This document shows, piece after piece, positions 1,023 through 1,232 of a stretch of DNA of 4,286 nucleotides. The DNA comes from a virus (lineage: Duplodnaviria; Heunggongvirae; Uroviricota; Caudoviricetes). The position numbers and the translations under genes were made by a program. The stretch covers positions 1 to 4,286 of the IMG/VR virus record IMGVR_UViG_2609459864_000004; one strand, 5' to 3'. Within the stretch, counting starts at the first letter, position 1; each line of letters begins with the position of its first letter. The notes under the pieces were generated by a model, which was given only the letters and a program-made list of their open reading frames with translations, had not been told where the DNA came from and did not search any database.

Positions 1023-1058
1023 TTGACTGTTGTCTGGTTTGCGGGGAGTTTGTTAAAA
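1023..1058 (+). promoter_or_regulatory. candidate sigma70 promoter region (-35-like TTGACT at 1023-1028) ahead of a short structured leader; pR'-like position
   Basis: TTGACT is a consensus-class -35 and matches the lambda pR' -35 hexamer as I recall it; the -10 is weak (GAGTTT at 17-bp spacing, TAAAAG further downstream), so this rests mainly on context (upstream of the hairpins and terminator at 1077-1232). Confidence 0.2.
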
Positions 1059-1196
1059 GAAACTGGCATGGTGAATCCCCCTGTGCGGAGGGGCAATCAG
1101 CGAGTAGGTATATGGGATAATCGCGGATTCAGGTGCTGGTACTGAATTCACCGGGAGGCACCCGGCACCATGCAATGGCACATAGCGCCACTCTCC

Positions 1197-1232
1197 AGCC
1201 CCTCTCCGGAGGGGCTGTTTATATTGATTTTG
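1197..1232 (+). terminator. Rho-independent terminator (tR'-like candidate)
   Basis: Perfect 8-bp GC-rich stem AGCCCCTC/GAGGGGCT (1197-1204 / 1209-1216) with 4-nt loop TCCG, followed by T-rich tract GTTTATATTGATTTTG (1217-1232). The T tract is on the + strand only. Confidence 0.55.

Follow-up and report, generated by a model that had tools for sequence, protein, structure and literature searches.

A late-region segment of an Escherichia coli lambdoid prophage as a probable copy of the small RNA gene STnc100, with a candidate pseudoknot and exchangeable 3' tails

Lambdoid prophages of Escherichia coli O157 Sakai carry convergent genes for Hfq-bound small RNAs in a 'moron' site downstream of the late promoter pR' (Tree et al. 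2014, PMC4104026), an example being the pair found 3' of stx2B in prophage Sp5, where EcOnc27 is the sense and AsxR the antisense RNA (PMC4104026). EcOnc27 is identical to sRNA103, which is positive by Northern blotting and by cross-linking and analysis of cDNA (CRAC) with Hfq (PMC7873438), and in strain EDL933 eleven copies of STnc100 are transcribed, with STnc100_4 confirmed by Northern blot (PMC5331693). The PasD1 and PasD2 RNAs of enteropathogenic E. coli (EPEC), 173 and 172 nucleotides (nt) long, are abundant, seen on Northern blots and present in Hfq data from RIL-seq, in which interacting RNAs are ligated and sequenced (PMC8550237); a common ancestry of PasD and STnc100 has been proposed, and the PasD2-esterase-holin synteny noted, by Zhu, Shabalina and Storz (2026, bioRxiv 10.64898/2026.05.13.724894). 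In Shiga toxin (Stx) phages, mapping has placed pR' and its terminator tR' upstream of stx, at a distance of 258 nt from each other (PMC7547250). Here we describe a 4,286-nt stretch of viral DNA (positions 1 to 4,286 of IMG/VR record IMGVR_UViG_2609459864_000004; the window), which is the late region of an E. coli lambdoid prophage, and within it a segment at 1023-1232 that a first-pass annotation had read as a pR'/qut/tR' leader or, alternatively, a small regulatory RNA.

Our data indicate, with a probability that we put at about 0.88, that this segment is a copy of the known prophage small RNA gene STnc100, self-contained and placed at the late operon's 'moron' site, between the Q-proximal late promoter with its terminator and the lysis genes. 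In a scan of all Rfam families, STnc100 (RF02076) was the sole match, covering model positions 1-206 in full at 1037-1226 (+) with 132.4 bits (E 4.7e-30; the gathering score is 47), and because a covariance-model match of this size is decisive, the identity is more than a chance resemblance. No riboswitch family was matched in the Rfam scan. A tRNA- or tmRNA-like element was considered and dropped, as ARAGORN finds neither and the likeness of helices P1 and P5 (Table 1) to an acceptor and a T arm was a mere impression. The second of the two first-pass readings, a small regulatory RNA, is thus borne out by the Rfam match and by homologues that are Hfq-associated RNAs.

The location is also that of an STnc100 element, with holin and lysozyme genes downstream on the same strand and Q upstream in colinear relatives. 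The order DUF3927, element, SASA esterase and holin is kept, and it is the same for PasD2 in strain E2348/69. Among related IMG/VR loci the element sits 336-3,481 nt before the holin gene and 370-3,379 nt from the end of Q (median 1,263, n = 57). The segment itself occurs, identical or nearly so, in 2,860 of the 5,426 complete E. coli genomes, at up to 12 places per genome; 2,121 records match it with at least 99% identity, and copies on O157:H7 chromosomes are 99.1% identical across window positions 1008-1222. The element is therefore already known and very common, and what we add, a pseudoknot and cassette-like tails, are modest new details.

For comparison among copies, viral contigs were scanned with a 14-base pattern, which yielded 65 members of the family, among them 48 distinct RNAs; genome contigs scanned with this pattern returned only chance matches in unrelated phyla. 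Single phages can carry tandem copies of the element at a spacing of 468, 267 or 232 nt, with variable hairpins and tails that differ between the copies (locus L002 at 3061-3254 and 3530-3718; also L135, L147, L148, L159, L173, L132 and L203). One further copy, in a derivative of E. coli O127:H6 E2348/69 (L004 2428-2450 and 3971-4147), is split by the IS4-family insertion sequence ISEc13, which lies inside the P2 loop after GCATGGTGAATCCCCCTGTGCGG, at the equivalent of window 1088/1089. The 5' 23 nt stand on one side of the insertion, the 3' part beyond it is 98.6% identical to window 1081-1222, CTGTGCGG is duplicated at both junctions, and the remnant still scores 75.5 bits on RF02076.

The Rfam alignment, a minimum-free-energy fold and RNAalifold run on 30 variants were used to define a structured 5' domain, in which the long-range helix P1 closes helices P2 to P5 (Table 1). 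Family members have this domain in common; it spans GCAUGGUG to CACCAUGC and includes an internal hairpin that varies, and RNAalifold recovers P1, P2, P4 and P5 from the 30 variants. Within these, P4 covaries: the pair formed by columns 82 and 105 is A-U in 14 sequences and G-C in 12. Of the hairpins listed by the first-pass annotation, CCCCT/AGGGG and CCGGG/CCCGG are where they were said to be and correspond to P2 and P5 of the multi-helix domain. The palindrome CCATGCAATGG exists as well, but at 1168-1178 instead of 1167-1177, and it forms no separate hairpin, its CCAUGC being the 3' strand of P1. A fourth strong hairpin, which is our P4, was missing from that list. The fold of 1057-1232 has a free energy of -69.2 kcal/mol, with a z-score of only -2.07.

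Covariation also points to a pseudoknot between the P4 loop and the junction after P2 (Table 1). Its pairing is kept in at least four sequence versions in the STnc100/PasD family (ATCAGC/GCTGAT, ATCAGT/ACTGAT, CTGGTG/CACCAG and ATGATC/GATCAT), and pairing scores are 5.6-8.5 within a class as compared to 2.0-4.6 across classes, with none of 2000 loop shuffles reaching the observed mean. The pseudoknot is absent from the Rfam structure line and goes unmentioned in the preprint of Zhu, Shabalina and Storz. A 225-nt fold further gives a candidate outer helix P0, of GGGGAGU at 1043-1049 with ACUCUCC near 1189-1195, which resembles the outer pairs of the Rfam model; in copies with other tails no consistent P0 pairing was found.

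Beyond the 5' domain the family becomes modular. The shared domain is followed by at least five unrelated tails, which bring terminators of their own, one tail type has no obvious intrinsic terminator, and a PasD-like tail is joined to an STnc100-type 5' domain in other loci, L139 and L162 among them. The tail position is where the EcOnc27 probe and the predicted seed of PasD are found, and from this comparison the tail at 1174-1195 probably acts as the seed of the RNA. The tail is followed by the intrinsic terminator that the first-pass annotation had recognised, a G+C-rich hairpin at 1196-1217 and then TTTATATTGATTTTG. Its stem has 9 pairs, 7 of them G-C, with a loop of 4, and runs into TTTATATTG. 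No other terminator-like site in the window scores as well, while the number of such sites there is unremarkable (6, as compared to 4.1 +/- 2.4 in shuffles). Most family members end in the same terminator hairpin, and a Rho-independent terminator with a 3' U-tract, where Hfq usually binds, is what is expected of an Hfq-type small RNA. Tentatively, and more as a possibility than as an expectation, we suggest that the 108-nt 5' domain folds as an independent RNA module and has its own function, be it protein binding, acting as a decoy or something else beyond a passive nuclease shield, and that phages recombine it with interchangeable 3' cassettes of seed plus terminator, in a scaffold-and-cassette architecture.

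A domain of this kind placed before a terminator could also be a sensor, riboswitch-like or protein-binding, that governs its own terminator and hence read-through into the esterase and lysis genes. The compact arrangement closed by P1 and the covarying pseudoknot would suit such a role, and the 3' strand of P2 (GAGGGGC) could pair with the 5' strand of the terminator (GCCCCUC). However, with so many unrelated tails and terminators on one domain, including the type that lacks an obvious intrinsic terminator, a conserved switching helix is unlikely; in addition, the homologues act in trans as Hfq small RNAs and Rfam offers no riboswitch match. We therefore regard a sensor as very improbable.

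Whether the STnc100 copy has a promoter of its own depends on the region upstream of P1. The TTGACT that had been taken for a consensus -35 hexamer is present at 1023-1028, but a promoter scan calls no promoter there and no -10 hexamer lies 16-18 base pairs (bp) downstream. Positions 1046-1051 read GAGTTT, which was rejected as a -10 for TTGACT, the hexamer being unconserved (GCATTT, GAATTT, AAGTTT). With respect to G1066, TTGAC lies at -43, 25 bp from the -10-like hexamer TAAAAG and 7 bp out of register as a -35. It forms part of tandem GTTGNCT repeats, and the short inverted repeat that flanks these, CAGGC...GTCTG, shows A-U, G-C or G-U exchanges in some copies, as judged by eye with no formal count. 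The geometry that is conserved, TTGNCT/TTGAYT-18-TAAAAR-6/7-G, is found in nearly all of 43 distinct upstream variants. Class A copies, to which the window belongs, have a TG at -15/-14 and a weak -35, whereas class B (PasD-type) copies have no TG and a near-consensus TTGACT or TTGATT at 18 bp, and because these strengths complement each other, as they would in a real promoter, we infer that the gene is served by its own sigma-70 promoter.

RNA-seq coverage puts the estimated 5' ends of PasD1 and PasD2 at the G of GCATGGTG. Its homologue in the window is G1066, near which transcription probably starts from the promoter just described. The first-pass annotation had predicted a transcript of about 175 nt from 1057; the RNA is likely shorter, ~156-161 nt from G1066 to the U-rich tract, or else ~210-215 nt if a longer isoform of the EcOnc27 type exists. 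Class A conservation reaches ~70 nt upstream of P1 and takes in TTAAAT or TGTAAT, CACAATTCAG and a small hairpin with GTTGAC (window 999-1036; L248 2880-2925), which, together with the EcOnc27 Northern bands of ~235/247 nt, suggests either a longer isoform starting near 1005-1015 or the processing of a longer precursor.

Several points weigh against the picture drawn so far. Evidence at the level of RNA comes from homologues, so that expression in the lysogen, association with Hfq and pairing with mRNAs are attributed to the window copy by analogy, and targets have been proposed only for the Sp5 variant (fimZ and espA, upon overexpression; PMC7873438). The -10-like TAAAAG lacks the usual final T, and the proposed 5' end leans on homology to PasD, whose own ends are coverage estimates. 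The U-tract of the terminator is interrupted (UUUAUAUU) and weaker than the UUUUUUU of many other copies. P1, P2 and P5 are nearly invariant in the sample and carry no covariation evidence, an invariance partly accounted for by the search pattern, which fixed the 5' strand of P1 and half of P2. Finally, EcOnc27 runs at ~235/247 nt on Northern blots, which exceeds the 172 nt from the homologous G to the terminator in Sp5 and implies that class A copies may start, or be processed, further upstream.

This last observation would also fit an RNA that has no promoter and is cut from longer upstream transcripts (from late, DUF3927 or tRNA promoters, or from the stx2 3' untranslated region), with a main role in cis as a terminator or insulator of the late operon. 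The A/U-rich UUUGUUAAAAGAAAC just before P1 resembles an RNase E site, StxS provides a precedent for processing, the Rfam model begins 29 nt upstream of P1, and in every annotated locus looked at a small DUF3927 open reading frame (ORF) is directly upstream. Against this, nearly all of the 43 variants, from two unrelated upstream classes, keep the -35 and -10 elements in register with G(+1), PasD has its 5' end at the homologous G, family RNAs are abundant in uninduced lysogens, and binding of RpoD at Salmonella STnc100 copies has been observed by chromatin immunoprecipitation with exonuclease treatment (ChIP-exo; PMC10794520). Taken together, we consider processing from longer transcripts unlikely as the sole origin of the RNA.

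The other first-pass reading was that the segment combines phage pR', qut and tR', so that its short leader would be the Q-dependent switch for everything downstream. Support for it can be seen in the downstream esterase, holin and lysozyme genes, which share its orientation, in the length similar to the lambda 6S leader, and in the fact that pR'-tR' leaders such as StxS can be small RNAs themselves (PMC7547250). A strong terminator does close the short leader, but this is common to any small RNA gene and does not discriminate. The late promoter appears instead to lie elsewhere. In the intact, colinear relative E. coli SK1144 (L003), we find, within the 100 bases that follow the Q stop codon, TTGATT-16-TAAATT-cgtcat-AACGATGGG followed by the terminator AACCCGCCGCCGAGCGGGTTTTTT, and alignment to lambda shows the -10 (GGTAAATT) and the pause-inducing AACGATGGG in common. 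Judged by this sequence, the Q-proximal site of SK1144 is the predicted late promoter; it precedes the tRNA genes and lies ~1.05 kb upstream of the element, with the Q stop codon itself ~1.09 kb upstream. SK1144 thus has, next to Q, both a correctly spaced -10 in a sigma-70 promoter and a pause element close to that promoter, whereas TTGACT in the window has no such -10, and neither an AACGAT-type nor a clear -10-like pause element was seen at the start of the predicted transcript, GCATGGTGAATCC.

Each qut site works with its cognate Q only. The element, by contrast, follows Q proteins of three Pfam families, PF03589 (273 and 207 amino acids, aa), PF06530 (144 aa) and PF06323 (229 aa), and since the same 5' domain stands after all three, it is not specific to a cognate Q as qut would be. 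One or more Q-proximal terminators still lie between Q and the element in every short-distance case, in locus L223 an StxS-type tR' is directly followed by the element, tandem copies of the element exist, and the Sp5 element, behind stx2B, is a long way downstream of pR' and tR' as mapped. A Q-dependent control point at 1023-1232 is, on this evidence, highly improbable.

That the segment encodes a small protein is a suggestion that can draw on existing records. ORFs of 37-50 aa overlap the element at 1023-1145 (+), 1133-1246 (+), 1170-1310 (+), 983-1096 (-), 1053-1181 (-) and 1148-1300 (-), copies carry the label 'hypothetical protein' in RefSeq and GenBank, RefSeq has a partial pseudogene on the minus strand, a phage record has a coding sequence in the segment, and some EDL933 copies show ribosome footprints (PMC5331693). 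Yet Pfam gives no match for any of the six ORFs, RefSeq itself flags its feature as incomplete and pseudo, and the substitutions keep base pairs rather than codons. The domain is 101, 105, 109, 110, 111, 118, 121, 123-126 or 129 nt long among copies, so no reading frame is kept, and the prospect of a coding segment, which the first-pass annotation had named as fatal to its proposal, is close to nil.

The mechanism that we propose for the STnc100 copy begins in the lysogen, where the weak sigma-70 promoter TTGTCT-18-TGtTAAAAG would initiate at about G1066, and a longer form might begin ~55 nt further upstream. The RNA, by the comparison of copies, folds into the compact 5' domain, with P1 closing P2 to P5 and a loop-to-junction pseudoknot, and this domain may protect the RNA from 5'-end-dependent decay. 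Synthesis would stop at the gene's own intrinsic terminator, which is visible in the DNA and which sets the predicted 3' end; the tail and terminator would then bind Hfq and pair in trans with mRNAs, as is known from homologues with other tails. As the terminator stands inside the late operon, Q-modified polymerase coming from the upstream late promoter would arrive at the esterase and lysis genes only by reading through it, and the element may thus form an extra barrier passable only for such polymerase. This is the part of the earlier Q proposal that survives.

The features of the window are collected in Table 1. Positions 457-2074 are colinear with SK1144 (98.3%), where the order is Q, tRNA-Ile/Arg/Arg, DUF3927, element, IraM, DUF1737 remnant and holin. 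Relative to SK1144, the window has gained an IS1 in the interval from the tRNA-Ile/Arg/Arg cluster to DUF3927 (junction at window 456/457, L003 4457/4458), which splits the late genes from Q and pR'; the window, with IS1 occupying its first 456 nt, contains no Q gene. The 113-aa ORF that follows is a putative gene: its DNA is 98% conserved in SK1144 and mEp460, neither record annotates it on the same strand, the mEp460 record has in this region only a small minus-strand hypothetical coding sequence near its start, and a terminator-like hairpin lies within the ORF at 640-658. A small hydrophobic DUF3927 ORF of 43-52 aa is found directly 5' of the STnc100/PasD element in the window, in SK1144 and at both PasD loci of E2348/69 (L005 1459-1617 and L006 1762-1920), and may belong to the same mobile module as the element.

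Downstream, the IraM-like gene fills the slot held in Sp5 by the antisense AsxR, and no match to AsxR or AgvB was found in the window. In SK1144 and phage 640R1, blastn colinearity skips from window 2074 to 3562, and the esterase is reduced to a DUF1737 remnant and a small ORF (L003 5849-6195). The hairpin between the esterase and holin genes is kept in SK1144 (L003 6278-6306) and could be the 3' end of another small RNA or a further late-operon terminator. A PasA-like small RNA at this place was considered and rejected, the PasA region of E2348/69 aligning unconvincingly with window 3705-3822; the PasA probe sequence is on the plus strand in that region, which makes PasA antisense.

Table 1. 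Positions of the features discussed, in window coordinates
Feature	Position	Strand	Remarks
IS1, right end	1-456		ORF 64-441 matches DDE_Tnp_IS1 (InsB C-terminus, PF03400), E 7e-74
113-aa ORF, TTG start	463-804	+	Unannotated; no Pfam match
DUF3927 ORF, 43 aa	840-971	+	Directly upstream of the STnc100 element
Conserved upstream block	999-1015	+	TTAAAT (-10-like), then CACAATTCAG; at 5' edge of module in class A copies
Tandem GTTGNCT repeats	1016-1036	+	Flanked by short inverted repeat; includes TTGACT
Segment under study	1023-1232		Between DUF3927 ORF and IraM-like gene
-35-like hexamer TTGTCT	1030-1035	+	In register, 18 bp upstream of TAAAAG; matches 4 of 6
Extended -10-like TGT + TAAAAG	1051-1059	+	TTTGYTAAAA conserved in class A copies
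Structured 5' domain	1066-1173	+	Predicted from alignment and folding
P1, 8-bp long-range helix	1066-1073 with 1166-1173		GCAUGGUG with CACCAUGC; closes P2-P5
P2	1078-1082 with 1089-1093
P3	1100-1103 with 1121-1124		Variable
P4	1125-1132 with 1142-1149
P5	1151-1155 with 1161-1165
Pseudoknot	1096-1102 with 1134-1140		AUCAGCG (junction after P2) with UGCUGGU (P4 loop); from covariation
3' tail	1174-1195	+	AAUGGCACAUAGCGCCACUCUC; candidate region for seed pairing and Hfq contact; the family has several interchangeable tail cassettes
Intrinsic terminator	1196-1226	+	Stem-loop CAGCCCCUC-UCCG-GAGGGGCUG at 1196-1217, then UUUAUAUUG
IraM-like anti-adapter gene, 111 aa	1252-1587	-	Convergent with the small RNA gene; called IraM in RefSeq relatives; no Pfam match
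DUF1737-SASA-DUF6645 sialate esterase (NanS-p type), 623 aa	1833-3704	+	Full-length
Terminator-like hairpin, 12 pairs	3787-3815	+	Then TTTTTTT; between esterase stop codon and holin start
P21-type holin	3855-4070		Followed by start of next ORF, in lysozyme position

For annotation, these results mean that the segment should be labelled as a noncoding RNA of the STnc100 family, that it should carry no late promoter label and that the spurious 'hypothetical protein' should be dropped. The family adjoins Shiga toxin and lysis genes, and in a machine-learning study variants just downstream of stx2B that overlap the STnc100 family were the strongest predictors of hemolytic uremic syndrome (PMC12711010). 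The conserved promoter geometry, which agrees in register with the 5' end of PasD, the covarying pseudoknot, the exchangeable tails and the IS-split copy of E2348/69 offer handles for experiments, while the classification stays unchanged.

How the element stands among the described systems can now be stated. With the pR'/qut/6S/tR' region of lambda, whose leader is 194 nt, it shares a terminated RNA of similar length upstream of lysis genes; unlike lambda, it lacks the -10 TAAATT with AACGATGGG, both of which are present beside Q in SK1144, and it is neither adjacent to Q nor specific to one Q family. StxS is likewise a small RNA from the late region of a prophage that ends at an intrinsic terminator, binds Hfq and is made in lysogens. 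It is, however, a true pR'-tR' leader beside Q, processed from 258 nt to 74 nt, and has no obvious sequence similarity to the element when the two are compared by eye without alignment. Since the StxS terminator lies immediately upstream of an STnc100 copy in L223, the two are separate modules.

PasD1 and PasD2 of EPEC E2348/69 (EcOnc13 in Sakai Sp3) come closer. They share with the window the synteny of DUF3927, RNA and SASA esterase or holin, the P1 start GCAUGGUGAAUCC, the same P2, P4 with the pseudoknot in another sequence version and a terminator at the end, and their association with Hfq is documented. They differ in scoring only 41.4 (PasD2) and 37.7 bits on RF02076, which is below the gathering score, in a P5 that is not a separate hairpin, and in a class B upstream region with a near-consensus TTGACT -35. 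The PasD tail, with its seed UGUGAG and its GGCUGCGCA terminator, is unrelated to that of the window. The likeness is greatest to EcOnc27/sRNA103 and STnc100_1 to _11 of O157, which have the same 5' domain, the same 'moron' site in the late operon and the same kind of terminator. The Sp5 copy, which we checked, scores 207.7 bits for STnc100 and starts 75 nt beyond the stop codon of stx2B, and the convergent AsxR comes directly behind it. Compared to the window, Sp5 EcOnc27 carries another 3' tail, its variable P3 is longer, and it comes after stx2B and faces the antisense AsxR, whereas the window copy ends in the tail AAUGGCACAUAGCGCCACUCUC and has the IraM-like gene as its convergent neighbour.

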